A stretch of 64,000 nt of DNA from an uncultured Acidobacteriota bacterium (GCA_963701315.1 OY969603.1:2896394-2960393); one strand, 5' to 3'. Counted from the stretch's first letter, positions 1,614-48,778 are shown. Program-made: numbers and translations. The notes: generated from the sequence alone by a model not told the origin.

Positions 1614-3065
1614 ATGAAGGAAACCGACACGGCGCACGTCCACCTGGCCTACCTGTGGACGATCTCTCTCGTCGCGGCGATGGGCGGCCTGCTGTTCGGG
1701 TACGACTGGGTCGTCATTGGCGGCGCCAAGCCATTCTTCGAGGAGCACTTCGCCCTGACGGGTCCCGCACAGGTGGGCTGGGCCAACTCCTGCGCGCTCC
1801 TTGGCTGTCTCCTTGGGTCGCTCGTGACCGGCACGCTCAGCGAGCGATTCGGGCGCCGCACGCTGCTGCTCGCCTCCGCGATCCTCTTTGCGGTGTCCTC
1901 GGTCCTGACGGGCTGGGCGCCGTCCTTTGCGACCTTCGTGGTGTGGCGGATCGGCGGCGGGCTGGCGATTGGCATGGCCTCGAACCTGTCACCGGTGTAC
2001 ATCGCCGAAGTATCGCCGGCGCGCCTGCGCGGCAGGCTCGTGGCGGTCAACCAGCTCACGATTGTGGTGGGCATCCTCCTCGCCCAGATCGTGAACTGGT
2101 GGATCGCCGTCAGGATGCCGTTCGGAGCGGTCGGCGCTGCCGAAACCGTCCGGCACGCCTGGAACGTCACGGTCGGCTGGCGGTGGATGTTCACGGCGGT
2201 CAGCGTGCCGTCTCTGCTGTTCTTCGCCGGGGCGATCTTCGTTCCCGAAAGCCCTCGCTGGCTGGCCGCCCACGGCGGCGCCGATCGCGCTCGGCGAGTC
2301 CTGGAAAGAATCGGTGGTGGCGCCTACGCCGAAGCCGAAACCGTGGCGGTGCTTCGAACACTGAAGGACGAGGCGACGGCGCGGACAACCGTGGCGGCGC
2401 TGACCCAGCCGGGGATGCGGAACATTCTGCTCATAGGCGTCACCCTGGCCGTGTTGCAGCAGTGGAGCGGCATCAACTCGATCTTCAACTACGCGGAGGA
2501 GATCTACCGTTCGGCCGGGTACGCCATCAACGACATCATGTTCAACATCGTGATTACTGGCGCGATCAACCTGGGCTGCACGCTGATCGCCATCGCGACC
2601 GTGGACCGGCTCGGGCGCCGAAAACTGATGCTCGTGGGGTGCGGTGGAATTGCCGTGTCGCACCTCCTCCTCGGTGCGGCGTATGCCGGGGGGCTCCGCG
2701 GCAGTGCCGTTCTCACGCTCACCCTCTCGTCGCTAGGGTGTTACGCCTTGTCGCTGGCCCCGGTCACCTGGGTGCTGATCGCCGAGATCTTCCCCAACCG
2801 CGTTCGGGCTGCGGGAGTATCCGTCGCAGTGTCCGCCCTGTGGGTGGCGTGCTTCGTTCTGACGTTTGCGTTCCCGCTGCTTCAACGCGCAGTCGGAATC
2901 GCCGCGACGTTCTGGACGTATGCGGCGATCTGCCTGGCAGGATTTGTTTTCGTGTGGCGGAGGGTGCCCGAAACGAAAGGTCGGAGCCTGGAACAGATCG
3001 AGCGCGACCTCGGCGTTCTTCCCCCAAGCACCGGCGATGTGGCGAGAACGCGCGGGATCGTGTGA
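1614..3065 (+). CDS. MFS sugar porter (sugar:H+ symporter, XylE/GalP-like)
   Basis: ATG at 1614 follows the upstream stop. Motifs GGLLFGYDWVVIGGA, GRR, PESPRWL and PETKGRSLEQIE are hallmark sugar-porter signatures. Multiple hydrophobic segments are present. Confidence 0.88.
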   Translation: MKETDTAHVHLAYLWTISLVAAMGGLLFGYDWVVIGGAKPFFEEHFALTGPAQVGWANSCALLGCLLGSLVTGTLSERFGRRTLLLASAILFAVSSVLTGWAPSFATFVVWRIGGGLAIGMASNLSPVYIAEVSPARLRGRLVAVNQLTIVVGILLAQIVNWWIAVRMPFGAVGAAETVRHAWNVTVGWRWMFTAVSVPSLLFFAGAIFVPESPRWLAAHGGADRARRVLERIGGGAYAEAETVAVLRTLKDEATARTTVAALTQPGMRNILLIGVTLAVLQQWSGINSIFNYAEEIYRSAGYAINDIMFNIVITGAINLGCTLIAIATVDRLGRRKLMLVGCGGIAVSHLLLGAAYAGGLRGSAVLTLTLSSLGCYALSLAPVTWVLIAEIFPNRVRAAGVSVAVSALWVACFVLTFAFPLLQRAVGIAATFWTYAAICLAGFVFVWRRVPETKGRSLEQIERDLGVLPPSTGDVARTRGIV

Positions 3066-3138
3066 ACCGGCGAGCCGTGCTATAGTCAGAGGTCTGGGAC
3101 CGCTCGGGAACACCACCTTGATTCAGAAGGAGCAGCGC

Positions 3139-3468
3139 ATGAAATCCATCATGCTCGGCGCCCTGGCAGTCGTCCTCGTCCTCGGCCTGGTCGGGTCCGC
3201 GACTGCGGCCGACAAGACGTTGACTGGCAGCATCATGTGCGCGAAATGCGCGCTGAAGAAGGCCGACGCCAAGGTATGCCAGGACGTACTCGTCGTCAAG
3301 GGCGAGGGGGACAAGACCACCGAGTACTACCTCACCAAGAACGCCGTGGCCGAGAAGTTCGGGCATGTGTGCAAGGGTGAAAAGGCGGTGACGGTTACGG
3401 GCGCGGTGTCGGAGAAGGACGGGAAGACCTGGCTCGAGGCGACGAAGATCGAGGAAGCCAAGAAGTAG
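3139..3468 (+). CDS. small secreted Cys-containing protein (DUF6370-like)
   Basis: AAGGAG RBS at 3127-3132. Signal peptide MKSIMLGALAVVLVLGLVGSATA. The mature part has CAKC and C...C pairs. 109 aa. Confidence 0.6.
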   Translation: MKSIMLGALAVVLVLGLVGSATAADKTLTGSIMCAKCALKKADAKVCQDVLVVKGEGDKTTEYYLTKNAVAEKFGHVCKGEKAVTVTGAVSEKDGKTWLEATKIEEAKK

Positions 3469-3487
3469 GGTCGACTCAGGTCGCGGG

Positions 3488-3509
3488 GGCCGGGGCGCAT
3501 TCCCCGGCC
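3488..3509 (+). terminator. GC-rich hairpin downstream of the small secreted protein gene
   Basis: 8-bp perfect stem GGCCGGGG / CCCCGGCC with a 6-nt loop, 20 nt after the stop. There is no U-tract, so it is only terminator-like. Confidence 0.35.
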
Positions 3510-3578
3510 TCGCCGACGATTCTCACAGGGTTTCGGCCGCGATCCCCGTCACGATATACTCAAGCTGCTCGGTTCGGT

Positions 3579-3665
3579 GCCGGAGTGGCGAAACTGGCAG
3601 ACGCGCGGGACTCAAAATTCCGTGTCCGCAAGGACGTGTGGGTTCGATTCCCTCCTCCGGCACCA
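3579..3665 (+). tRNA. tRNA-Leu (anticodon CAA), type II with long variable arm, CCA encoded
   Basis: Folds by hand as GCCGGAG/TG/GCG-AAACTGGCAGA-CGC/G/CGGGA-CTCAAAA-TTCCG/variable arm/GTGGG-TTCGATT-CCCTC/CTCCGGC-A-CCA. There is one T:T mismatch in the T stem. Confidence 0.9.
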
Positions 3666-3746
3666 TATAAACACCAGCTGAACAAGTGTTTCCGGCTGAT
3701 ACCCGTGGACAGGCATGTACCTGACCGCGTTCATGTCTGACACAGA
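3610..3746 (+). repeat. attL-like copy of a 137-bp direct repeat (tRNA-Leu 3' 56 nt plus about 80 nt flank)
   Basis: Repeats at 17055-17191. The tRNA part differs at 1 nt. The first 22 nt of flank (TATAAACACCAGCTGAACAAGT) are identical, then identity is roughly 85-90 percent. Confidence 0.8.
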
Positions 3747-4086
3747 ACTGACACAGTCAGCTCGCCGCAAGGAGTACAGACAGTTGTACTCTCTGTACTT
3801 GTCGGTACCCGCCCCACCGGCACCGGTGGAGCTCCGCGCTGACGCGATCCACGTCGGCCGGCCCGGAGACCGAAACCGCACGCGTCTGCTCCTGGCCTCT
3901 CGTCACGGGCTACGCGTGAGCGAGGTCGTGGCACTGCGCGGTGACTCGGTCGACGTCACGGCCGGGCGCTGGACGTCGTGGGCCTACGAACGAGTGCCGT
4001 CGAGGCATCCGCTGCGGGGCGACGAAGCGCCGGATCCCCGGGTCTCGTCAGAACGGCATCCGGGCATTACCTCGCCGCCCTTGTAG
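3715..4086 (+). pseudogene. 3'-truncated small tyrosine recombinase/integrase (FimB-like)
   Basis: ...RNRTRLLLASRHGLRVSEVVALRGDSVDV...SRHPLRGDE matches the N-terminal half of small integrases (HGLRxSE...W.D.D...HPL). The catalytic C-terminal half is absent and the ORF runs into the antisense of the next gene. Confidence 0.65.
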
Positions 4087-12799: not shown

Positions 12800-13569
12800 A
12801 TGCATCTTCGCAGCATGAGCGTGTTTCTTCTGGCGGCTGCCGCGACGCTGGCGGCTGCCGACAATCCCTTTGTCGGCAAATGGAAAGAGAATCTCGCTCA
12901 GGACGACTACGTCGACGCCACCGTCAGCTACGAACAGACACCCCCCGGTGAGATGCAGGTGACCGCAGAGGGTCACTCCTACAAGTTCAGGATGGATGGA
13001 AAGGAATACCCCACCGGCTTCGGCTCCCTCGTCGCTTGGAAACAGGTTGATGAGAGCACATGGGAAACGGTCCGCAAGACCAACGGCATCCTGGACTGGG
13101 TAGCCACGACCAGACTCTCGCCCAATGGCAAGACCCTGATGGTGACTGAGAAGGGGAAGCGGTCGGACGGCGAACCCTTTGAGGACAACGAACCTACCAG
13201 CGCGTCGCCGGTGGGCCTGGGCTCGCCGGGAAGTGGAAGCTGACCCAGTGGAGATTCAGTTCCGCCTTTGTGATGGAGATTGCCCCCTACGAGGGTGAGG
13301 GCATCACCTGGAGACTTCCCGGGAACGCCACCGTGAACGCCAAGTTTGACGGCATAGATTACACCGTGACCGGCCCGAGCACGCCCGCCGGCTCCACGGT
13401 GGCGCTGAAAAGGACCGGCCCGCGATCCTTCGACGAGGTCCTGAAGATCAAGGGTAAGGTCGTGTACACGGGCACCGTCACGGCTTCTGCTGACGGCAAG
13501 ACTCTGACTGAGGTCGTGACACCTTCTGGCGCCAACGAGAAGACGAAGACCGTGTACGACCGCCAGTAA
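12800..13569 (+). CDS. secreted lipocalin-like domain protein, apparent 1-nt frame break near 13190-13195
   Basis: Signal peptide MHLRSMSVFLLAAAATLAAA, then NPFVGKWKEN. A second FVG/GKWK-type repeat (LAGKWKLTQ) and the C-terminal half are in the -1 frame (track ORF 13270..13569). Confidence 0.6.
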
Positions 13570-13639
13570 TCGACAGCCCAAGGCCGCTGCCGCCGCCCGC
13601 GCCCCGTGGTCCGGACGCGGACCACGGTCACGCCCACGT

Positions 13640-14035
13640 CGCTCAGCGAGCGCGTCATGCGGCGAGGCGAGAGGCGGGCGCCGAGGGCTAACCGCGCGAA
13701 GCTGACCAGCTCGTCCGCCAGGAAGAAGGCCACTGGTTTCGACCGCATCACGCGCCCCCGCTCGGCATGGAGCGTGAGCTGGCCGGGCGGGATCGCGTGT
13801 TTGGCGATCGTCTCGGCGATGAAGGTCTCCGCCAATTCAGCGCCTTCGCGATGCGCGATCATCCACCCCACGACGTACCGGCTGAAGACGTCCAGGATCA
13901 CGTAGAGATAGAAGTAGGTCCACTTGGCCGGGCCGAGCAGCTTGGTGATGTCCCAGGACCACAGCTGGTTCGGCGCGGTGGCCAGTAACTCGGGTTTCTG
14001 GTACGCCGGATGGACCAGTTGATCGCGCCGCTCGC
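13640..14035 (-). pseudogene. IS3/IS481-type transposase (rve integrase core) fragment
   Basis: Translates to ...PNQLWSWDITKLLGPAKWTYFYLYVILDVFSRYVVGWMIAHRE...LTLHAERG, the DDE/rve core start. Both ends of the gene are missing and no IRs are present. Confidence 0.7.
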
Positions 14036-14069
14036 TCGCTCATGAATACGGGCTATTCCCCCCGACCAT

Positions 14070-15284
14070 TCAAGCTTCCAGCAAGTCGTCAACGGGCCTG
14101 GCTAGGAACTCCTCCAGCGCGATGCCGTTTCCTCCGACGAGCAGCGTGCGCCGCGGCTTGAAAGCCTCCGCAAAGGCGCCTAGCCCGGGAAGCGCGACGG
14201 GCGCACGGCCGCTCTTCACTTCGATCGCGATGACGGTGCGGCCGACACGGACCACGAAGTCCACCTCGCGGTTGCCTTCGCGCCAGTAGAACAGTTCGCA
14301 TGCGCCGCCGGCCGCCGCATTGGCGAGGTGCGCGCCTACAGCGGACTCGACCAGTCGTCCGCGGAATTCTCTGTCGGCCCGTGCCTCGGCGGGCGAGAGG
14401 CCGGATTGCGCGGTCATGAGCGCCGTGTTCAGCACCTGCAGCTTGGGGCTCGACCCGCGCTGGTGCACGGCCTCACCGGCATACTTCTGAAGGCCGGTGA
14501 GCACCCCCGCGCCGCCGAGCAGATCGAGGTAGTGCGCGAGCGTCGTCGAGTTGCCAGCGTCCTGCAGTTGACCGAGCATCTTCGTGTACGAGAGCACCTG
14601 GCCCGAGTAACGGCACCCGAGTTCGAACAACCTCCGCAGGAGCGCGGGCTTGTCCACCCGCGTCATCAGGAGGACGTCGCGCGCGATCGTGGTCTCAATC
14701 AACGCATCGAGGAGGTAACGCCGCCAACGTCGCGGGTCGTGGACGAGCGGTGCAGCTCCGGGATACCCGCCGAAGTACAGATACTGCTCCAACGAGAACC
14801 CGAAGGCCGCACGCATTTCCGCGTACGACCAATGCGGCAGGTGCACCACTTCAAACCGGCCGGCCAGACTGTCTGTCAAGCCCCGCCGCATGAGCAGGGG
14901 CGCCGAGCCGAGCAGCACCACCTTCAGCGGACGGCGGGCCCGCGAGTCCTCGTCCCAGAGCCGCTTCACGGTCTCTGACCAGCCCGGGATCTTCTGCACT
15001 TCGTCGAGGGCCAGCACCGCGCCGGTCCTGCCGGCGTCTGCCGCCGCCATCCGTGCCCGCTCCCACTGGGCGGCGAGCCAGGCAGAGTCACCCAGGGTCG
15101 GCTCGTCGGCGGAGACGAAGACGCTGGCGGCACTCAGTCGGCCCAGCACCTGCTCGACGAGGGTGGTCTTTCCCACTTGGCGGGCGCCCGCCACGATCTG
15201 CAGGAAGCGGCGTGGCTCGCCCAACCTGGCCGCAAGGATGCCGGCTTGGCTGCGCTCGAACGGGGAGCTCGTAGGGGTACTCAT
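14070..15284 (-). CDS. AAA+ ATPase with DUF4143-type C-terminal domain
   Basis: Walker A GARQVGKTTL and Walker B VLALDEVQ. The C-terminal ...ELFYWREGNREVDFVV...AIEVKSG (restriction-endonuclease-like fold) is typical of the AAA_14/DUF4143 family. Confidence 0.85.
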   Translation of the reverse strand: MSTPTSSPFERSQAGILAARLGEPRRFLQIVAGARQVGKTTLVEQVLGRLSAASVFVSADEPTLGDSAWLAAQWERARMAAADAGRTGAVLALDEVQKIPGWSETVKRLWDEDSRARRPLKVVLLGSAPLLMRRGLTDSLAGRFEVVHLPHWSYAEMRAAFGFSLEQYLYFGGYPGAAPLVHDPRRWRRYLLDALIETTIARDVLLMTRVDKPALLRRLFELGCRYSGQVLSYTKMLGQLQDAGNSTTLAHYLDLLGGAGVLTGLQKYAGEAVHQRGSSPKLQVLNTALMTAQSGLSPAEARADREFRGRLVESAVGAHLANAAAGGACELFYWREGNREVDFVVRVGRTVIAIEVKSGRAPVALPGLGAFAEAFKPRRTLLVGGNGIALEEFLARPVDDLLEA

Positions 15285-15695
15285 TGTCGTGAGTAAGTGT
15301 GCTCAACGCTCTGAGTAAAGTCAAGCCGCCGGCACCAGTTCCTGTCATTCGGTGATGACACCCATCAAGAAGGGCTCGAGCGCGAGGCCCGCGGCTCGCC
15401 GGAGGGCGTCGATGATCGGTCGGATGGGGCTGTCAAGCACGCGGGGGAGGCGCATTGGGCCGGCGGCAAGGGCACGACGGCGGGCCGGTCATCTCCCATA
15501 TTCTGACCGCCGGCGCCGAATCTCAAACCTAATATTGCGGAGCTTTCTGCTATGCTTCGGGCTCGCTGCATGGAGTCCTCACCGGGCCAGCGTGGCCACC
15601 GCCGCCGCCTTGTGTTCGGCAGCTGTTCGCGAGCGTCTGAAAGCGCGTGATTTTGGACGGCTGTCGACGGCGGCGTGAGATGGGGGCGGCCACCC

Positions 15696-15845
15696 TTACT
15701 TGGGTGGCCGTTGCTGTCTCTGGTGCGCCTGGGCGTCGCGGCGGCGGTAGCTCTCGCCGTCGATCGCGACGATCTCCGCGTGGTGCGTGAGCCGATCGAT
15801 GAGCGCGACGGCACAGCCGGCGTTGGGAAAGACGCTGTCCCAGTT
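15696..15845 (-). pseudogene. IS21-family IstB helper ATPase, C-terminal fragment only
   Basis: ...[33 protein letters not shown] matches the IstB C-terminus (AxLDRLxHHxxxxxxxGxSYR). Everything upstream is replaced by the antisense of the next gene. Confidence 0.6.
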
Positions 15846-16875
15846 GGTGGCGCGGGCCATCCACCGCGCCTCGGCGCGCGCCCGGCGGGCCTTGATCAAG
15901 GTCAACTGTGCGGCACTTGCGGAAGGGCTCGTCGCCTCGGAGCTGTTCGGTCACGAGAGAGGGGCCTTCACCGGCGCGACAGAAAGGCGCCGGGGGCGGT
16001 TCGAGCTCGCTGACGGTGGAACGATCCTTCTCGACGAGGTCGACGACCTGCCCCACCCCGTGCAGGTGTCCTTGCTGCGCGTCCTTCAGGAAGGCGAGTT
16101 CGAGCGTGTGGGCGGGAGCCAGACCCTCAGGACCGACGCTCGAGTGGTGGCGGCGACCAACCGAAACATCGAGGAAGCGGTGCGCGAGGGGAAGCGTCGG
16201 GAGGACCTCTTCTTTCGACTCAACGTGTTTCCTATCCACTTGCCGCCCCTGCGCGACCGAGTCGACGACATTCCTCTCATTGCCGAGTATTACGCGCACT
16301 TTCACGGACGCAAGATGGGGAAAGCCATCCAGCGGATCGCGCCTGAAGCCATGGCCATGCTTGTACAGTACCCGTGGCCAGGCAACATCCGAGAGCTCCA
16401 GAATGTCGTGGAACGGGCGATCATACTCGCGCGAGGCCACGTCCTCGACGTTTCCGATCTCGAGATCCCGGGCCTCCGCTCCAGCGGGCCCAGGTTGACG
16501 AGACCTCCCGGCGGACCGAACGCGGAGCGTCAGCGGATCGAGGAAGCCCTTTCCGCCAGCCGGGGCAGGGTCTCGGGCCCCGAAGGAGCCGCCGAGGCGC
16601 TCGGGATCCCACCGAGCACGCTCGAATCGCGCATCCACCGCCTAGGGACCCGGCAGGAACTAACGGTCGCCTCAACCAAACTGGTCGCGGGTTCTACACC
16701 GCGACGAGCGTTGGACCTGGCGCCAGAAGGCGGGGCATGCCCGCGGCCGCGTAGACCTTCGGTTCGTCCAGCGTCCCGTGGGCGAGGAACTCGACGACTC
16801 GCATCGAGCTGGTCGCTTCAGGCCGCCGGACGGCGAGACGAGCCGGACGGCCATCGCATCGCTCGGACAGGGTGA
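15787..16875 (+). pseudogene. sigma-54-dependent transcriptional activator, N-terminally truncated and C-terminally fused to foreign sequence
   Basis: Homology starts inside the AAA+ domain ([10 protein letters not shown]...VNCAAL, GAFTGA, ILLDEV, RVVAATN). Walker A and the receiver domain are missing. A Fis-type HTH ([20 protein letters not shown]) is present, and the ORF then reads on into a permease-tail duplicate. Confidence 0.75.
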
Positions 16876-38998: not shown

Positions 38999-39175
38999 AG
39001 CACATCGAACGCTCGAATCCCCAGGTTCAGCGGGGCGCGGAATACCAATACATGAGGATATTGCAAACCGAACTCCGCTGGTGATATACGTTGGCCGCCG
39101 ACCGATTCCGTCCTTCTTCGTGCCGGAAGGAACGTGGAAGATGGTGTTCGTTCGGCGATCGGAAGGAGATCGGCC

Positions 39176-40702
39176 ATGGGCTCGATTCGCAAGTGGATTC
39201 TCTTCTCATCTTCTCTCGGACTGATTGGCGCCGCAGCCTGCACGCAGAACCCCGAGCAGCAGGCAGGACAAAAGGCGCAGCCCGACGTGAAAGCCACCGT
39301 CAAATGGGACAAAACCATCGTCGTTTCGAAATCGACGCCCACGTTGCAGGTGGTCGTCAACCCTCCGCTGGAGCATGGCCAGCCGATGCAAATCGGCGCC
39401 TACGCGGCTTTGAAAGACCTGGGTGCGGACTACGTGCGCTATGTGCCTTGGCTGCCGTATCCCAAGCTGGCCGTGGCCGAGCTCGAGCCGCCGACCAAGG
39501 ACAAGACATCGTGGGACTTTTCTCTCATCGATCCCATGACCAAGGATTTTCTCGCCGCCCAGGAAGGGCACTCGACAGTGATGAACTTCTCCACGATTCC
39601 GCAGTGGATGTTCAAGACCGACAAGCCCATCGCGTATCCTGCCGACCCCGACCGGGTGACGTGGGACTACGAGAAAGGCACGGAGCTGCGCGACCCCAGC
39701 ATGAAGGAGCTGGGCGACTACTACAACCGCCTAGTGAGCTGGTACGTGAATGGCGGATTCAAGGACGAGAACGGCGTGCAGCACACCTCGGGCTACCACT
39801 ACAAGTTCCCGGTGTGGGAAGTGCTGAACGAAGTTGAGTCGGAGCATACGACCACGCCTGAAATGTACACGAGGGAATACGATGCCATCGTGGACGGCAT
39901 TCGCCGCGCCAGCCCCAGCACCAAGTTCATGGGCATGGCGCTGGGAGGGCCGAGCGATCATCCGGACTTTGTGGAGTATTTCCTCGACCCCAAGCATCAC
40001 AAGGCCGGCATCCCGCTCGACTTCATCTCCTACCACTTCTACGCGACGCCTACGCGCCGGCAGACCATCGACCAGTGGCAGTACACGTTCTTCGACCAGG
40101 CGGACGGATTCCTGCACACGGTGCGCTACATCGAGGGCATCCGCAAGCGCCTGTCGCCACCGACCAAGACGGATACCGATGAGTTGGGCGTGATTCTGCC
40201 CACCGACAACACCGATGCGGACAAAGTGGCTCCGCCACCGGAGTACTGGAACCTGGCCGGGTCGCTCTACGCCTACCTCTACATGCAGCTCTCGCGGCAG
40301 GGGATCGACATCATCGGCGAGTCGCAGCTAGTTGGATACCCGACGCAGTTTCCCAGCGTGAGCATGATGAACTGGGCGGACAACAAGCCCAACGCGCGCT
40401 TTTGGGTACTGAAGCTGATCAAGGACAACTTCCATGCGGGCGACAAGCTGGTGGATGGGAGCCTTGACGGAGCGAACTCGTCGGATGTGGAGGGGCAGGC
40501 GTTTATCACGTCGAGCGGCCGCAAGGCGCTGCTCGCCAACAAGCGCAACCAGACGATCAGCGTGGTTCTCCCAGAGGCCGACAAGGCAACCGCGGTTACG
40601 GTGGACCTGCAGACCGGCGACGGCCCGGCGCGCAGCGTGTCGGTGACCGATGGCAAAATCAAACTCGAGCCCTTTGCCGTGACGGTCGTGAGCTGGCAAT
40701 GA
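39176..40702 (+). CDS. lipoprotein glycoside hydrolase, clan GH-A (GH39-like)
   Basis: AGGAGA RBS and lipobox LIGAAAC. Motifs WEVLNEVE (acid/base NE motif) and FISYHFY. The family call is approximate. Confidence 0.7.
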   Translation: MGSIRKWILFSSSLGLIGAAACTQNPEQQAGQKAQPDVKATVKWDKTIVVSKSTPTLQVVVNPPLEHGQPMQIGAYAALKDLGADYVRYVPWLPYPKLAVAELEPPTKDKTSWDFSLIDPMTKDFLAAQEGHSTVMNFSTIPQWMFKTDKPIAYPADPDRVTWDYEKGTELRDPSMKELGDYYNRLVSWYVNGGFKDENGVQHTSGYHYKFPVWEVLNEVESEHTTTPEMYTREYDAIVDGIRRASPSTKFMGMALGGPSDHPDFVEYFLDPKHHKAGIPLDFISYHFYATPTRRQTIDQWQYTFFDQADGFLHTVRYIEGIRKRLSPPTKTDTDELGVILPTDNTDADKVAPPPEYWNLAGSLYAYLYMQLSRQGIDIIGESQLVGYPTQFPSVSMMNWADNKPNARFWVLKLIKDNFHAGDKLVDGSLDGANSSDVEGQAFITSSGRKALLANKRNQTISVVLPEADKATAVTVDLQTGDGPARSVSVTDGKIKLEPFAVTVVSWQ

Positions 40703-42904: not shown

Positions 42905-43364
42905 CTAAGGATCATTTTAGGGGTCTTCACCGTTCCTTGTTGGTTGCACATCAAGAGAAGACACCATGGGATAGCCAACGGCCGGCACCTCCGCCGTGGG
43001 GAACCGGGCCCCGGGCGGGCCGTTCGGTCCAGCGGGATGTGGCGAACAGTCGGTGCGATGGCAACCCACGGGGCGGCGCGCGCCGACTTCCAGGACCAGT
43101 ACCCGGGAAGCCCAGGCGGGTTGCGCCCGGTGTCGGCGTTAGTTCGGTTCATTCTCCACCGGCGACGGGCGCGGGTCGTCTAGAGAAAAGCGCTAGGAGC
43201 GCGTCCGAGTATTGGCCGACGCGCTCCTCAGGAGCGTGTCCGAGCCAGTGACGGGCGTGCTCATGATTCTCGTCATCCTCGCGCGGCCTGCGATCGCGTC
43301 GCCGAGGGCGGTGACGGGCCCCGCGTCCGTGAATGACTGCTAGCCACGCGTGGCTCGCCGCTGC

Positions 43365-43943
43365 TCAGCAGGCCTGCAGGAGTCCGTGGATCTTGAGCAC
43401 GGTGTGACCGAGGCACACAAGCGCCCATTCTCGCTGGACCTTCTCGAGTCCGCGCAAGACGAATTGGCGGAAACCGCGTCCATGCTTCGTCTGACCGAAG
43501 ACCGGTTCCACGATCGCCTTGCGCCACCGATAGACGTCATGGCCGCGCTTCGTCTGCAGCTTCCGCCTCATGCGATCGGTCAGCGTCGCCGCCTTCGGCA
43601 AGGGCCCGCGGGGGCATCGCACCGGCTGCTGATCGTGGGGCTGCCGACCGGTGGCCACGTAGCCGTCGATCCCCGCACTGGCCAGGTACGCCAAGTTCGC
43701 GTCGGAGCAGTAGCCGCTGTCCGCCAAGACCTCGGCCGGCCGCTCGCCAAATTGCGTCTCGATCACCTCGACCATCGGCTGCAGTTGTTGCTTGTCGTTC
43801 GGCTCCTGCGTCACCGCCTGCCCGACGATCAGTTGGCTGACGGGCTCCACGGCGATTTGCGCGTTGTACGCGTGCACAAACCCGTCGGGCCCCGTCATGA
43901 TGCGCGACTCGGGGTCGGTGAAGTTGTACTGCGCCTTCGGATT
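43365..43943 (-). pseudogene. IS1182-family transposase, C-terminal part (DDE domain)
   Basis: …PKAQYNFTDPESRIMTGPDGFVHAYNAQIAVE…ADSGYCS…KAIVEPVFGQTKHGRGFRQFVLRGLEKVQREWALVC… is the typical IS1182/IS5-like C-terminus. Confidence 0.85.
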
Positions 43944-44121
43944 ATGGAGAGCTCTCCATAACGAAGATTATGGTGAGTGCCGCGTTATGCTGCGCGCGGG
44001 CGATGCTCGACGGAATCACGGCCATGTTAGAGGCCGTCGTCCGTTGATCTTCTTTCCATAATCCGGTCTCGGGTGCATTGTCGTTCCTCCACCAGCAGAA
44101 AGGAGGAGCGATGTTTTCGAC

Positions 44122-45360
44122 GTGGTATCCGGCGACGCGCGCGGCCGCTATCGACGCTCCCCACACAAAGCCAGGATCGATCGGATCGGCAGCAGGCTTC
44201 GCCAGCAGCAGTATCTCGATGACGCGATCCGGCATCATCTCCACGAGTGGCTGCGATTCACTCAGTACCTGGATCAACGCGGCGTGACTCGCCCGACGAG
44301 TATCGCTGATGAGTGCGTGCGCCGGTACGTGGCGCGGCGCACGCGAGGTACGAGCGGGAGCCACGGCCGGTTTGTCCGCGCATCCGTCCGTCTCTTCATT
44401 GAGGCGGACGATGACGGTCACTGCCGGCGCCGCGTCGGGACCGCCTCATGGGTGGCGCCGGGCTGGTTTGGCGAGATCCTGACCCGCTACCTCGACTTCG
44501 TTCAGCGACATCGCGGCCTTGCCCGTCGCACGGTGAGTCAGTATGCGCGCAAGCTATCGGTGTTTGCCCAGTACCTGGAGCAGGCGAAGTGCACGCGGCT
44601 CGAGGCGATCGCGCCCCGGCACGTGCGTGCATTCTACGAAAACGCCGACGGCGACCGGCCACGTCGCTCCTACAGCTCGAGCCTCCGTGCGTTCTTCCGG
44701 TGGGCGGCGACACAAGACTTGGTCTCCGCGGTGCTGAGTGATGCGGTTCCCCGTCCGCGACACTATCGGTTAGCGACGCTCCCGGACGTGCTCACCGACG
44801 AGGACGTCGAGCGCATTGTCGCGACCGTGGACCGATCCACGCCGGTGGGGCGACGCGATTGTGCGGTCTTGCTCCTGGCCGCACGGTACGGGCTGCGGCC
44901 GTGCGATATTCGTCAGCTGACGCTTGATCACCTCGATTGGCGCCAGGCATGTATTGAGATCCGGCAGGCCAAAACGGGCCGGCCGCTGGTATTGCCGCTG
45001 CTTCCGGATGTCGCCGATGCCCTCAGTACGTACATCCGGGACGGCCGTCCGCCCTCTCTCAGTCGTGCCATCTTCATCAGGCATCGAGCGCCCTTTGAGC
45101 CGTTTGTCGCTGAAAACAATCTCTCGACCATCATGCGCGCGGCGCTGCACCGAGCGGGTCTGGCTGATCGACCTGGGCGCCGCGGCCTCTACCTGTTCCG
45201 GCACACTCTCGCCACGCGTCTGCTGGCCGCCGGCCATCCGATAAAGACGATCGCCGACGTCCTGGGGCACGCCTCCACTGACACGACGTACGGCTACGCG
45301 CGGATCGAGCTCTCAAATCTCCGCACGGTCGCCATCGCGGAAGCGGAGGTGGATGCATGA
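44122..45360 (+). CDS. ritA: tyrosine recombinase, first of trio (RitA-like)
   Basis: SAM-like N-domain plus catalytic domain: ...LLAARYGLRPCDIRQLTLDHLDW...IRQAKTGRPLVLPL...FRHTLATRLLAAGHPIKTIADVLGHASTDTTYGYARI (R..H-x-x-R..Y). The start is uncertain. Confidence 0.8.
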   Translation: MVSGDARGRYRRSPHKARIDRIGSRLRQQQYLDDAIRHHLHEWLRFTQYLDQRGVTRPTSIADECVRRYVARRTRGTSGSHGRFVRASVRLFIEADDDGHCRRRVGTASWVAPGWFGEILTRYLDFVQRHRGLARRTVSQYARKLSVFAQYLEQAKCTRLEAIAPRHVRAFYENADGDRPRRSYSSSLRAFFRWAATQDLVSAVLSDAVPRPRHYRLATLPDVLTDEDVERIVATVDRSTPVGRRDCAVLLLAARYGLRPCDIRQLTLDHLDWRQACIEIRQAKTGRPLVLPLLPDVADALSTYIRDGRPPSLSRAIFIRHRAPFEPFVAENNLSTIMRAALHRAGLADRPGRRGLYLFRHTLATRLLAAGHPIKTIADVLGHASTDTTYGYARIELSNLRTVAIAEAEVDA

Positions 45361-46358
45361 CGGCTTCCGCCTACGCCACGACGTTCGGTTCGCCGCTCGC
45401 GTCGCAGCTCGAGCGATTCCTGGCGCTCAAGCGCGCGATGGGCTATCGCTACCGCGATGAATCGCGGTTGCTCCGTGAGTTGGATCATTTCCTCACGGCA
45501 CGCCTGGCGTCGATGTCTGATCCGGTTCTCACACTGGCGGTCGCGCGCGACTATGTCGCCCGTCGCGGGAAGGAATCCGATGCGACCCGCGCCCATCGTC
45601 TCACGATCATCAGAGAAGTCAGCCGATTCCTGCGGCTGGAAGACCCGCGCACGGAGGTTCCAGGGCCGAGATTCCTCGCGATTGCACGGCACACGTTTGT
45701 GCCGCGGGTGCTCAGTCGCGAGGAGGGCCGCCGGTTCCTTCAGGCCTGCGACCACCTATCCCAAGACCCCCGATCGCCGATCCGGCACGTGGTGCTGGGC
45801 ACGGCCCTGCGGCTGTTGTATCTCACCGGGCTGCGCCGCGGCGAGGTCCTCCGGCTCACGCTGGCCGACGTCGATCCGAATGCCGGCGTCTTGCAGATTC
45901 ACCACACCAAGTTTGGCAAGTCGCGCCTGGTTCCGGTCGCTCCAGATCTCGCCCGACGCCTTACAGAATGTCGACGCGTCGTCCAAGCGCGCCTCGGACC
46001 CCGTGATCCGGAGACGCCGTTCTTTCCGCGGTCCACCGGTCGTCGGTACGGACCCTCCGCACTTCGCCGGGCATTTCATCAGACTCTGGATCTCGCAGGA
46101 ATTCCTCGTGTGCGCGGTGGCCGCCGTCTCCGCCTCCACGACCTTCGGCATTCCTGGGCAGTGCTGCGCCTCACGTTGTGGTGTGAGCAGAATGTCGACC
46201 TTGGGGCGAAGCTGCCACTCCTCGCGACGTACCTCGGTCATGTCGACTTGACCAGCTCCCAGCGGTATCTGCAGCTGACGCAAGACCTCGTCGCCGAGGT
46301 GACCCGTCGCCATCAAGCGCGCTTCGGCCATCTCATTTGCGAAGGGAGGGCCTCGTGA
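45357..46358 (+). CDS. ritB: tyrosine recombinase, second of trio (RitB-like)
   Basis: ATGA overlap with ritA. ...LLYLTGLRRGEVLRLTLADVD...HHTKFGKSRLVPV...LHDLRHSWAV...YLGHVDLTSSQRYL. Confidence 0.8.
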   Translation: MTASAYATTFGSPLASQLERFLALKRAMGYRYRDESRLLRELDHFLTARLASMSDPVLTLAVARDYVARRGKESDATRAHRLTIIREVSRFLRLEDPRTEVPGPRFLAIARHTFVPRVLSREEGRRFLQACDHLSQDPRSPIRHVVLGTALRLLYLTGLRRGEVLRLTLADVDPNAGVLQIHHTKFGKSRLVPVAPDLARRLTECRRVVQARLGPRDPETPFFPRSTGRRYGPSALRRAFHQTLDLAGIPRVRGGRRLRLHDLRHSWAVLRLTLWCEQNVDLGAKLPLLATYLGHVDLTSSQRYLQLTQDLVAEVTRRHQARFGHLICEGRAS

Positions 46359-47359
46359 GGCTGCCGATGCTCTCCGCCTTGATCACCGACTTCTTTGTTC
46401 GCCATCTGGCGTCCGAGCGAAATGTCAGCGCTCACACGACGATCGCCTATCGCGATGCCGTGAAACTCTTCCTTCGCTTCGCCTCGATGCGCTGCCACCG
46501 GGAGATCGACGAGCTCACGATCAGCGACCTCAGCGCCGATGCCGTGCTGGAGTTCCTCGCCGACCTTGAGACGCATCGCGGCAATGCCGTGCGGACCCGC
46601 AACGCTCGCCTGGCAGCCCTGCAGACCTTCTTTCGGTACGTCGCGACACGCGAGCCGGTGCTGGCCAGCCACTGCCATCCGATTTTCGCGATTCCAACCA
46701 AGAAGACGAGCCGCCCCGTCCTCGGCTACCTGAGCGAACAGGAGCTGGCGCATCTCCTCGCACAAGTCGACCGCTCCGGTGTCAATGGCGAACGCGACTA
46801 CGTGCTGCTCGCCGTGCTGTACGACACCGGCGCTCGCATTCAAGAGGTCCTCGACCTCGTCCCTCAGGACTTTCACTTCGACGCTCCGGCCTATGTGCGC
46901 GTCCGCGGGAAGGGACGTCGCGAACGACTCTGCCCGCTCCTTCCGCAGACCGCCCGTCTCATCCGACGATTTCTGACCGCGCAGCGGCGGACTCCCGGAG
47001 ACGCACGCCCGTTGCTGCAAAATCGGCGAGGCGCCCGATTGACCCGACACGGTGCGCGGTACTTGCTGCTGAAGCACCTCCATCGCGCCGCCGCTTCGAT
47101 GCCGAGTCTCGCTCGGCCCAAGATCAGCCCGCATACGCTTCGCCACACCAAAGCGATGCACCTGCTACAGTCAGGCGTCCCGCTCATCACCGTCAAAGAC
47201 TTCCTCGGTCACGTCGACCTGACGTCGACCGAGGTGTACGTCCAAGCCGACCTGGAGATGAAACGACAGGCGCTCGCAGGCGCAGGCGGGCCCCATGCGG
47301 TCCCCGGTCGACGCCTGCGCTTGCCGTCAGGCCTCATCGCCTGGCTCGAGTCGCTATAG
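46355..47359 (+). CDS. ritC: tyrosine recombinase, third of trio (RitC-like)
   Basis: GTGA overlap with ritB (an in-frame ATG at 46337 is also possible). ...VLYDTGARIQEVLDL...VRGKGRRERLCPL...PHTLRHTKAMHLLQSGVPLITVKDFLGHVDLTSTEVYV. Confidence 0.8.
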   Translation: MRLPMLSALITDFFVRHLASERNVSAHTTIAYRDAVKLFLRFASMRCHREIDELTISDLSADAVLEFLADLETHRGNAVRTRNARLAALQTFFRYVATREPVLASHCHPIFAIPTKKTSRPVLGYLSEQELAHLLAQVDRSGVNGERDYVLLAVLYDTGARIQEVLDLVPQDFHFDAPAYVRVRGKGRRERLCPLLPQTARLIRRFLTAQRRTPGDARPLLQNRRGARLTRHGARYLLLKHLHRAAASMPSLARPKISPHTLRHTKAMHLLQSGVPLITVKDFLGHVDLTSTEVYVQADLEMKRQALAGAGGPHAVPGRRLRLPSGLIAWLESL

Positions 47360-47457
47360 TCCGATATGGGAAGCCGGCGATCGCCCCTGCCAGCAGATCG
47401 TTCCGGAAGATCACGATCTCCGCCGCAGCTTCCCATAACGCGGCACTCACCATAATT

Positions 47458-48177
47458 CGGATCGGGAACCGCGTCCGATTGCTCGGCCGGGGCGGCCTCG
47501 GCTTTCGCGCGCGCCTCCAAGACCCGCTTCGCTTCGCGGATCCGCGCCAGTCGAGTCTCTCGGCGCTGCAGCTCCGGGGGCAGCTCGTCCCCGCGACGAT
47601 CGCGCCCGTGCGTCGCGTCCTCTTGCGCGTCGGTCGCCTCCGCCTGGGTCAGCAGATGATGGACCTCGGTGGCCAACGTCGCTTCGCGTTCCTGCATCCG
47701 CCCGTAACTCATCGCCTGGTGTTTCGAGGCGTTCGCCTTCACCTTACTGCCGTCGATCGCGACGCGCCCGACGCTGACGGCGCCCGCTTCCCGCGCCATC
47801 TGCAAGACCTGAACGAACAGGCCTTCCAACGCGGCCAGATGGATCTTCCGAAAGTCCGCGATCGTGCGAAAGTCAGGCGTGTTGCCGGCGGCCAACACGC
47901 GAAACGCCACATCGTCCACCAAGCGGCGCGCGATCCTGCGCGACGAGAAGACCCCGGTGCAATAGCCGTACACCAGCACCTTCGTCATCATCGCCGGGTG
48001 ATAGGGCGGCTGGCCCCGATCGTCACGCTCGTAGACCGACGTGATCGCCGACAAATCCAAGACGTCCACCAGGTCGCTCACGAAGAACGCAAGATGATCG
48101 TCGGGCAGCCACTCGCGCAGGCTCGGCGGCAACAACAAGCTCTGTTCGGGCAGATACGTCTTGTACGACTTCGCCAT
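47458..48177 (-). pseudogene. IS1182-family transposase, N-terminal part
   Basis: MAKSYKTYLPEQSLLLPPSLREWLPDDHLAFFVSDLVDVLDLS...GQPPYHPAMMTKVLVYGYCTGVFSSRRIA... is the typical IS1182 N-terminus. The track ORF reads on into the RIT terminal repeat. Confidence 0.85.
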
Positions 48178-48242
48178 CTCTCTAATCCAAGATCCGATCG
48201 ATCGCTGTCAAGGCTGAGATGGCGGAATTCTCGGACACGCTC

Positions 48243-48596
48243 CTAGTGGGCGCGACGGGTTGCGGCTGGACGGCCGCCGCGGCGGCCGTTCCGGCGGGCG
48301 GCTGCCGCTTTCCGCGCTGAGCGCTGATGCCCTAGCAACGCCGCCGGGCCGACGATGGCGACGCTGGATCGCCCGCGCGACGTTGTCACCCGAGCAACCT
48401 TCACGCCGGTCTGCGGTTCGGGCAGAGTGAGGCCACGCGCCTGTCGGTCCTCGACGTAGAGCGCGAGCAGTTCGCGCACGGCGTCCTCGGCCTCGTCTGA
48501 AGTGTCGGCGGCGGCGTACACGGGAAGCCCCGGCACATATGCGCTCACGGCCCCGCTGTCTTCGGCCTCGAAGACGATAGGATACCTTGTCGTCAT
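48243..48596 (-). CDS. hicB: HicB-family antitoxin
   Basis: MTTRYPIVFEAEDSGAVSAYVPGLPVYAAADTSDEAEDAVRELLALYVED is the HicB N-domain, followed by a basic C-terminal tail. It overlaps hicA by 4 nt, and its stop codon lies inside the IS1182 terminal repeat. Confidence 0.8.
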   Translation of the reverse strand: MTTRYPIVFEAEDSGAVSAYVPGLPVYAAADTSDEAEDAVRELLALYVEDRQARGLTLPEPQTGVKVARVTTSRGRSSVAIVGPAALLGHQRSARKAAAARRNGRRGGRPAATRRAH

Positions 48597-48778
48597 TCCA
48601 ACCCCGCATCCTTCAATATGCGACGGGCGAGCCGCCCAACGTCCTTCTTGGTGTGAACGGACACCCAGACTTCCTTCTTCGTGAGGGGGTGCACAAACCT
48701 CCGGTGACTGCCCCTGCCGATCCGCTCCTCGACGAAACCCGCAGACCGAAGGCGACGGATGAGTTCTGCCCAGGTCAT
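48593..48778 (-). CDS. hicA: HicA-family mRNA interferase toxin
   Basis: MTWAELIRRLRSAGFVEERIGRGSHRRFVHPLTKKEVWVSVHTKKDVGRLARRILKDAGLE is a full-length HicA pattern (G.H....HP......V..H...D.....L..IL.DAGL). Confidence 0.85.
   Translation of the reverse strand: MTWAELIRRLRSAGFVEERIGRGSHRRFVHPLTKKEVWVSVHTKKDVGRLARRILKDAGLE

Follow-up and report, generated by a model that had tools for sequence, protein, structure and literature searches.

A 64,000-nucleotide stretch of DNA from an uncultured Acidobacteriota bacterium (GCA_963701315.1 OY969603.1:2896394-2960393), referred to here as the window, contains a recombinase-in-trio (RIT) element nested inside the transposase gene of an IS1182-family insertion sequence (IS) at positions 43193-48246. 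This nesting was proposed in an initial annotation made from the sequence, and it is borne out by the homology of the recombinase trio, by the match to the IS1182 transposase model and by the size and ends of the element. The RIT forms a 3,514-bp unit (43942-47455) whose insertion into the transposase gene very probably took place through strand exchange by tyrosine recombinases over a 6-bp spacer. The insertion has inactivated the IS1182 transposase.

Junctions and limits of the mobile unit

The IS1182-family element is bounded by inverted repeats of 21 nt that are 90% complementary (43193-43213 / 48226-48246). In L002, an intact relative whose transposase is 84% identical, the DNA homology begins and ends exactly at these ends. 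The IS, the RIT and their junctions comprise the following features.

43193-48246: IS1182-family IS, whole, with the RIT inside; one coherent 1,534-bp IS once the RIT is removed
43193..43213: IS1182 terminal inverted repeat on the 3' side of the transposase; inverted repeat pair and end of the L002 homology
48226..48246: IS1182 terminal inverted repeat on the 5' side of the transposase; inverted repeat pair and start of the L002 homology
48177..47458, minus strand: N-terminal half of the IS1182 transposase (M1 to ...AVPDP, residues 1-240); NF033551 positions 4-233; DUF772
43937..43365 (43943..43365 in the profile match), minus strand: C-terminal half of the IS1182 transposase (KAQYNFTDPESRIM... 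to stop); NF033551 positions 245-485; DDE_Tnp_1 and DDE_Tnp_1_6
43936..43941: left copy of the duplicated target/crossover sequence TTCGGA, read from the sequence; 7 bp (TTCGGAT) counting 43942
43942-47455: RIT mobile unit, 3,514 bp, reaching from the palindrome's outer TTATGG to CCATAA in the right repeat; limits from 99.7%-identical copies
43942..43961: perfect 20-bp palindrome TTATGG-AGAGCTCT-CCATAA, outer left end of the mobile unit
43962..43967: inner 6-bp spacer CGAAGA, separating the left inverted repeat from the palindrome
43967..43989, plus strand: left 23-nt inverted repeat (ATTATGGTGAGTGCCGCGTTATG), with two TTATG(G) motifs 17 nt apart
47434..47456, minus strand: right 23-nt inverted repeat; the mobile unit ends at its CCATAA, 47455
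47456..47461: right copy of the duplicated TTCGGA

When the two transposase halves are joined, the rebuilt protein of 430 residues scores 368.7 bits on the NF033551 model (cutoff 270) in one stretch, over profile positions 4-485, and most of its homologues are 429-433 residues long. The two halves are contiguous in relatives, both in the homologue alignments and in the L002 DNA, as the annotation had supposed, although these relatives are at most 84% identical.

On the plus strand, the left side of the insertion reads gcgcc TTCGGA TTATGG-AGAGCTCT-CCATAA CGAAGA TTATGGTGAG..., and the right side reads ...CTCACCATAA TTCGGA tcgggaac. A 6-bp direct repeat, TTCGGA, thus flanks the insertion, in place of the blunt junction ...CGGATT|CGGATC... 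that was originally described. L002, the closest intact relative, carries a single GATCCGAAG where the window has two copies and is uninterrupted, with the sequence GATCCGAAGGCC (GAT CCG AAG GCC). At the protein level, the insertion position is readable in 119 of the 120 listed homologues, all 119 of which have P-x-x-(K/T/N/Q)-(A/T)-Q before YNFTD; PDPKAQ occurs exactly in 21 of the 120, and an extra Asn-Pro or a duplication is found in none of the 119. Because L002 and the readable homologues lack the duplication, the ancestral transposase would have read ...AVPDPKAQYNF and not ...DPNPKAQ. With the duplication removed, the true empty site is GCGCC-TTCGGA-TCGGGAAC. Cutting out 43944-47457, the excision first suggested, does produce one open frame of 432 residues, yet the two-codon duplication stays behind (DPNPKAQ; DNA GATCCGAATCCGAAG). 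The open IS halves, the perfect duplication and the perfect inverted repeats indicate that the insertion is recent.

The 23-nt inverted repeat of the RIT is perfect and is found nowhere else in the window, and none of 100 shuffles contained a match. The perfection of the repeats had been recognized correctly, but the left one is not terminal: it lies 26 nt from the true junction, with the palindrome and a spacer outside it. The palindrome is likewise unique in the window, with no matches in the shuffles, and 42 related loci have it beside the RIT. Each half of it (TTATGG plus 4 nt) is similar to the first 10 nt of the inverted repeat, and the whole looks like two abutted 10-bp RIT end motifs. 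An integrated RIT has three spacer sites, which are flank-spacer-TTATGG, CCATAA-spacer-TTATGG (the inner site) and CCATAA-spacer-flank.

The limits of the mobile unit come from closely related copies. The exact window RitB protein is present on five other contigs. L089 (run ERR11594402) represents the same locus in an independent assembly; its spacers agree with those of the window, and the identity is 100% over 3,490 nt. The RIT copies in L085-L088 share 99.7% identity with that of the window but occupy a different gene, that of an IS21 element. Their identity with the window spans 43942 to 47456, and outside the outer spacers the sequences are unrelated. Ten substitutions (nine in the body and one in the right inverted repeat) and one 1-nt indel in ritA separate the window RIT from these copies, and clustered differences are confined to the three 6-nt spacers. 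The inner spacer is CGAAGA in the window and CCAGGA in L085-L088, which amounts to two changes, and the outer spacers are TTCGGA in the window and TCCTGG in L085/L086, with the same three differences at the left and right sides. The identity limits shared with copies in another site define the mobile unit as 43942-47455, and the restriction of clustered differences to the spacers marks the three of them as exchangeable parts.

Recombinase genes and RIT membership

The mobile unit carries three tyrosine recombinase genes on the same strand, in the order A-B-C, with Phage_integrase domain E-values of 7e-24 (ritA), 4e-19 (ritB) and 3e-26 (ritC). The window ORFs (open reading frames) and the domain search reveal no further ORF in the 3.5-kb unit.

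44122..45360, plus strand: ritA, 412 residues from GTG; SAM_1 and Phage_integrase; best match the A protein of pHG1
45357..46358, plus strand: ritB, 333 residues; Phage_integrase; ATGA overlap with ritA
46355..47359 (ORF from 46337), plus strand: ritC, 334 residues from GTG 46355, or 330 residues from ATG 46367

The initial annotation described consecutive genes with 4-nt overlaps. The genes and the ATGA overlap of ritA and ritB (45357-45360) are certain, but ritB and ritC overlap by GTGA (46355-46358) only if ritC starts at GTG 46355; otherwise there is an 8-nt gap to ATG 46367, and the gene caller picks the equivalent of this ATG as the ritC start in relatives.

The grouping of the three proteins with RitA, RitB and RitC, as was expected, follows from a comparison with a complete trio on plasmid pHG1 (L091 13434-16608), which we take to be PHG134-136 from the gene order and the adjacent IS66 gene. 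The proteins match position for position (A-A 1.9e-47, B-B 1.1e-37, C-C 4.9e-75), whereas no cross pair is better than 5e-14, and the second pHG1 trio gives the same pattern. The catalytic residues of RitB (HDLR at 261, LGH at 293) and RitC (HTLR at 260, LGH at 284) can be identified, and both proteins have the usual HxxR, H and Y residues. RitA has a conserved tyrosine instead of the first histidine of the HxxR box, and its residues Y357-x-x-R360-H361, H383 and Y392 are invariant or nearly so in 35 relatives.

RitA proteins have been described as containing two sequential core-binding domains, and RitC proteins an extra conserved C-terminal helix (PMC8138268). The AlphaFold2 model of the window RitA contains an extra five-helix domain (residues 5-94, with a predicted local distance difference test score, pLDDT, of 73-92) before the Pfam SAM-like domain at 121-197, and in a profile-profile comparison the two N-terminal domains align in register but weakly (E 4.6e-4, probability 33%). 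RitC ends, after a variable linker, in the motif L(P/S)S.LI.WLE(S/A)L, which is shared by 40 of 43 related ritC copies with a complete C terminus; the corresponding endings are KLLAFLKGL in the 36%-identical L060 and ELLGFLNGL in the pHG1 RitC. This terminal motif fits the extra C-terminal helix and would correspond to it. Published RITs measure about 3.5 kb, with a 28-9 bp repeat and an overlapping palindrome (PMC3414803). Filing the element as a RIT is supported by these features of its genes and ends.

Compared with L001 and L085-L088, that is, with every close copy, the window ritA has, within 44103-44130, a 1-nt deletion at about 44127 (TATTCC to TATCC). The native ATG at 44112, which is preceded by the ribosome-binding site GGAGGAG, is put out of frame by this deletion, and the long ORF starts only at GTG 44122. 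L089 carries the same allele. The GTG start, with a loss of four residues, could still be usable for RitA, but the deletion may have crippled this copy of the RIT since its insertion. A search of the genome contigs with RitA produced a single distant relative of 27% identity (L003).

Usual target in istA genes and the IS1182 site

A metagenome scan with RitA yielded 80 loci encoding RitA relatives of 59-80% identity, and their ends were parsed. At a simple end, the flank is followed by a 6-nt spacer and the TTATGG of the inverted repeat, and at a palindrome end by a spacer, TTATGG-N8-CCATAA, a second spacer and the TTATGG of the inverted repeat. Both ends are seen in 19 related metagenome loci; the junctions in the window are preserved, as the annotation stated, but such preservation is not rare.

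Comparison of the flanks of the other RIT copies, which the annotation had advised, shows that the usual site is the istA gene of IS21 elements. Translated, the simple-side flanks read ...KRFVRKL...AVIETAPG and the palindrome-side flanks EE.QVDYG..., which places the insertion at one codon position of istA, ...ETAPG|EE.QVD.... In five loci, ORFs of 441-651 residues reappear once the RIT and palindrome are taken out; two of these ORFs were scored on the IS21 transposase model and gave 223.8 and 250.3 bits (cutoff 160). With three IstA queries only, 33 of 49 flanks on the simple side and 40 of 44 on the palindrome side gave matches. Four remaining flanks were tested against models; three match IS21, and the fourth (L034) lies in an IS1380-family transposase gene.

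Some loci have other surroundings. In L034 (about 2274) and L038 (about 217), the simple end of the RIT abuts ...LDMDSTEIPVYG; the L034 flank is the IS1380-family transposase (NF033539, 108 bits on a fragment), and L038 has the same motif. In L033 (about 924) and in L046 and L051 (about 124), the simple end is situated beside ...GGGCTAAAAATGC|TCTGCA, and no IS21-like coding sequence was seen in these three flanks. In L057 (1-4200), the istA that holds the first RIT has another about 220 nt away, which belongs to a separate lineage (ORFs 204-1460 and 2778-3839), so that two RITs occupy one target gene at two positions. The end of the second RIT is followed by CCGAAG, the palindrome TTATGGAGAGCTCTCCATAA and CTTGGG. 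The RIT of an Agrobacterium Ti plasmid (L090) showed no terminal repeats, which is probably due to an IS21 adjoining its right end.

In all loci the palindrome adjoins the downstream part of the target gene. The body of the RIT is found in both orientations, with the palindrome at the ritA side in 10 elements and at the ritC side in 10, and L019 and L020 share their flanks but have opposite body orientations. The window has the same polarity: the IS1182 transposase gene meets the simple end with its upstream half and the palindrome with its downstream half. L017-L020, which are from related samples, contain the same RIT in four flank combinations from two IS21 types, and L018 has upstream-type flanks on both sides. 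This pattern suggests RIT-mediated inversion and rearrangement among IS21 copies, with assembly artefacts at repeats as a possible contribution.

The spacers were compared in 20 elements with one simple and one palindrome end, including the window.

All three spacers identical: 5 elements
Simple-end spacer identical to the inner spacer: 5 elements
Inner spacer identical to the outer palindrome-side spacer: 6 elements
Two outer spacers identical, inner spacer different: 2 elements (the window and L049)
All three spacers different: 2 elements

Identical outer spacers are thus present in 7 of the 20 elements, and a non-target spacer is found at one junction in 6 of them. L047 and L049 share a site, and the single difference between them is the outer spacer on the palindrome side, which has the sequence of the target in one and of the element in the other. 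The inner spacer of the window, CGAAGA, is identical to a common IS21-site spacer. On six other contigs a palindrome is present at both ends, possibly through mis-joining or rearrangement.

The distinct junction flanks of IS21 type (depending on flank length, 32-42 for the simple side and 36-39 for the palindrome side) were combined in a position weight matrix, which was scanned over both strands of the window with the RIT removed, giving 120,894 positions for 14-nt flanks. With flanks of this length, the point where the RIT is actually inserted, read in the exact register and orientation, comes 12th of 120,894. With flanks of 5, 8, 10 and 20 nt it comes 1,076th, 204th, 158th and 180th, respectively. 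A shift of the register by 1-4 nt drops the rank to 22,047th or worse. The resemblance resides in the arms (CCCG before the spacer and GGCGCAG after it), not in the spacer. We read the window copy as an off-target insertion, guided by partial arm similarity, into a weak look-alike of the IS21 site.

The host IS has further features near its ends. A second, internal copy of its terminal repeat motif is present at 43228-43244 with 2 mismatches, and a GGAGCGCGTC/GACGCGCTCC stem lies near the 3' end; both are kept in L002, and the region 43193-43244 looks like a subterminal hairpin-like structure. No direct repeat was found outside the IS1182 ends, where the terminal CTAG is either part of the inverted repeat or a 4-bp duplication. 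A hicA/hicB toxin-antitoxin pair adjoins the IS at 48243-48778 on the minus strand (HicA_toxin 6e-14; HicB-like 2e-5, slightly below the Pfam cutoff). The terminal CTAG of the inverted repeat contains the TAG stop codon of hicB, and the IS1182 insertion may therefore have replaced the native 3' end of hicB.

Alternative explanations, proposed mechanism and known systems

An insertion without duplication between ...CGGATT and CGGATC... (insert 43944-47457), with the 23-bp repeats as termini, would account for the single 432-residue frame, which is near the homologue lengths, and it has a precedent in the Tn554-type tyrosine-recombinase transposons, which make no target duplication (cited in PMC10214605). 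It is nevertheless highly improbable. It leaves a tandem ATCCGA (DPNPKAQ) that is found in none of the 119 readable homologues or in the L002 DNA, it places 23 nt between the claimed junction and the left repeat, and it conflicts with the identity to the 99.7% copies, which starts at 43942 and not at 43967, as well as with the identical outer spacers in 7 of the 20 two-ended elements. The palindrome might instead be a separate miniature element, or the footprint of an earlier RIT visit, that reached the IS1182 site independently. Such an origin would suit the likeness of its halves (TTATGG plus 4 nt) to the first 10 nt of the inverted repeat, the pair of 6-bp spacers at its own borders and the centres of palindromes, which are often hybrids of two half-types (e.g. 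GACG|CGTT). However, the same AGAGCTCT palindrome accompanies 99.7%-identical RITs at two unrelated targets, there is none in the intact IS1182 relatives, exactly one lies beside the RIT in each of the 20 elements that have a simple end and a palindrome end, and two independent hits at one off-target position are improbable, so that we consider a separate origin unlikely.

Recombination between two pre-existing RIT copies could also have joined unrelated flanks, with no insertion into this IS. Chimeric flanks do exist among the relatives, where two different IS21 types are joined in L017-L020 and both flanks of L018, L068 and L078 are of the upstream type. The flanks in the window, in contrast, are exactly contiguous transposase halves with a perfect 6-bp repeat and one pair of IS ends, which makes this explanation barely conceivable. 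Protelomerase-like hairpin-end resolution at the palindrome was considered as well and rejected: many palindrome centres are asymmetric, and the junction variation is situated in the flanking spacers.

Several points weigh against insertion of the RIT by 6-bp exchange at an IS21 look-alike. The empty site is derived from relatives that are at most 84% identical; no intact copy of the exact IS was found, and neither form of the rebuilt transposase (430 or 432 residues) is present among the collection proteins. The site in the window scores about 0, compared with medians of about 17 and 25 for true IS21 half-sites, and the best-scoring site in the window (39166-39199, plus strand, score 17.8), at the start of a 522-residue non-IS ORF (39134-40702), carries no RIT; the target model is therefore a partial predictor only, and the rank depends on flank length. 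The conservation of the IS21 flanks is mostly at codon positions 1 and 2 and may reflect coding and not recombinase recognition, and metagenome contigs that end in repeats may be mis-joined. Because of the ritA frameshift, the window copy may no longer be active. A circular junction or an empty donor site was not seen in this analysis, and RIT transposition has never been reproduced in the laboratory (PMC10214605). Nielsen et al. found RIT DNA enriched in exonuclease-resistant fractions but did not demonstrate circles (PMC5737581), and the circle in the scheme below is accordingly conjectural.

In the mechanism that we propose for the 6-bp exchange, the RIT would excise as a circle by recombination between its two outer spacer sites. 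The circle junction, CCATAA-N6-TTATGG (CCATAA-N6-TTATGGAGAG), would serve as a conventional core site, in which a 6-bp crossover region is enclosed by two inverted binding motifs. The expected circle junction for the window element is ...CACTCACCATAA-NNNNNN-TTATGGAGAGCTCT, and the expected restored site is GCGCCTTCGGATCGGGAAC. The core of the circle would then recombine with a target whose arms resemble CCNGG and GGCGCAG. Mismatches in the spacer would be tolerated, and the heteroduplex junctions would resolve to either the carried or the target sequence; the inner CGAAGA may have been carried over from an earlier IS21 site. Given the likeness of its halves to the initial 10 nt of the inverted repeat, the palindrome could act as a minimal pair of ends, giving the RIT a second full site, and recombination of the inner site with the inverted repeat site at the far end would invert the body.

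A wider picture is offered only tentatively. The clade of RITs to which the window element belongs might be a site-specific transposon parasite that homes to the istA codon position and occasionally to IS1182/IS1380 look-alikes, with a mobile unit that ends in a "mini-end" palindrome, a mismatch-tolerant 6-bp exchange and a self-inverting body. Three half-site types, the TTATGG motif, the upstream target arm and the downstream target arm, would then explain the need for three recombinases, with two copies of one acting on the element sites and one each of the others on the target arms.

The window element resembles the known RITs (Van Houdt et al. 2009/2012, PMC3414803; CH34/pHG1, PMC2864759) in its A-B-C trio, the ATGA overlap, the size of ~3.5 kb and the presence of repeats and a palindrome. 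It differs in its host, which belongs to the IS1182 family, and its RitA is about 29-33% identical to the proteobacterial RIT references, the nearest named homologues being acidobacterial. A RIT inside a transposase gene is already on record, in the IS66 tnpA of C. metallidurans CH34 (PMC2864759) and in a Tn6049-like transposase of A. ferrooxidans (PMC3414803); the window copy adds unusually clean junctions. On pHG1, a "maze" of rit genes has been described next to the IS66 tnpA (PMC2864759). Within L091 (pHG1 NC_005241.1), positions 13250-16800 contain the complete pHG1 trio, inserted in the ritC of another RIT and flanked by inverted copies of the DNA that encodes ...TPHTLRHYMPF. That one RIT is nested in another accounts for the published maze of recombinase genes.

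Other systems share part of this design. Tn554 and the SE transposons likewise use tyrosine recombinases, have a site preference and carry 6 bp of the donor site to the new site (PMC10214605), and the window RIT similarly holds a spacer that is not derived from the IS1182 target. In the RIT, however, the non-target 6 bp are at an internal site and both outer junctions carry target sequence. Tn554 encodes two recombinases and TnpC, and the SEs encode four proteins (IntA-Tfp-IntB-Srap), whereas all three proteins of the window RIT are tyrosine recombinases. Tn916 and CTnDOT have a crossover of the 6-bp class that tolerates mismatches and leaves donor or target sequence at the junctions (compare L047 and L049), but they are large conjugative elements with a single integrase and Xis, without a terminal palindrome module or an invertible body. 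The GInts and the gamma-mobile-trio (PMC5385486) are also genomic elements built around three integrase-type genes; unlike the window RIT, GInts need a fourth gene and carry cargo, and the only gamma-mobile-trio match, of NF040693 (GmtY) to RitC, reaches 19 bits against a cutoff of 340.

The target specificity of RITs is listed as "not tested" (PMC10214605). In the RIT literature that was covered, which did not include Ricker et al. 2013, we found no mention of a 6-bp duplication, a palindrome within the mobile unit, an inner spacer with the appearance of carry-over or homing to IS21, and the priority of these observations is uncertain for that reason. No link between RITs and IS21 was found in that literature, where the two are mentioned together only in unrelated passages of one paper.

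The window and its near-identical copies supply the limits of the mobile unit, the 6-bp crossover duplication, a preferred target in istA and a clear off-target event. RIT elements are widespread, and we know of no account of how they move. Carry-over from an earlier site is the simplest reading of an inner spacer that matches IS21-site spacers, and the junctions provide concrete substrates for an integration/excision assay as well as specific reads to seek. The nested arrangement, in which one mobile element disables another, bears on the control of insertion-sequence load.

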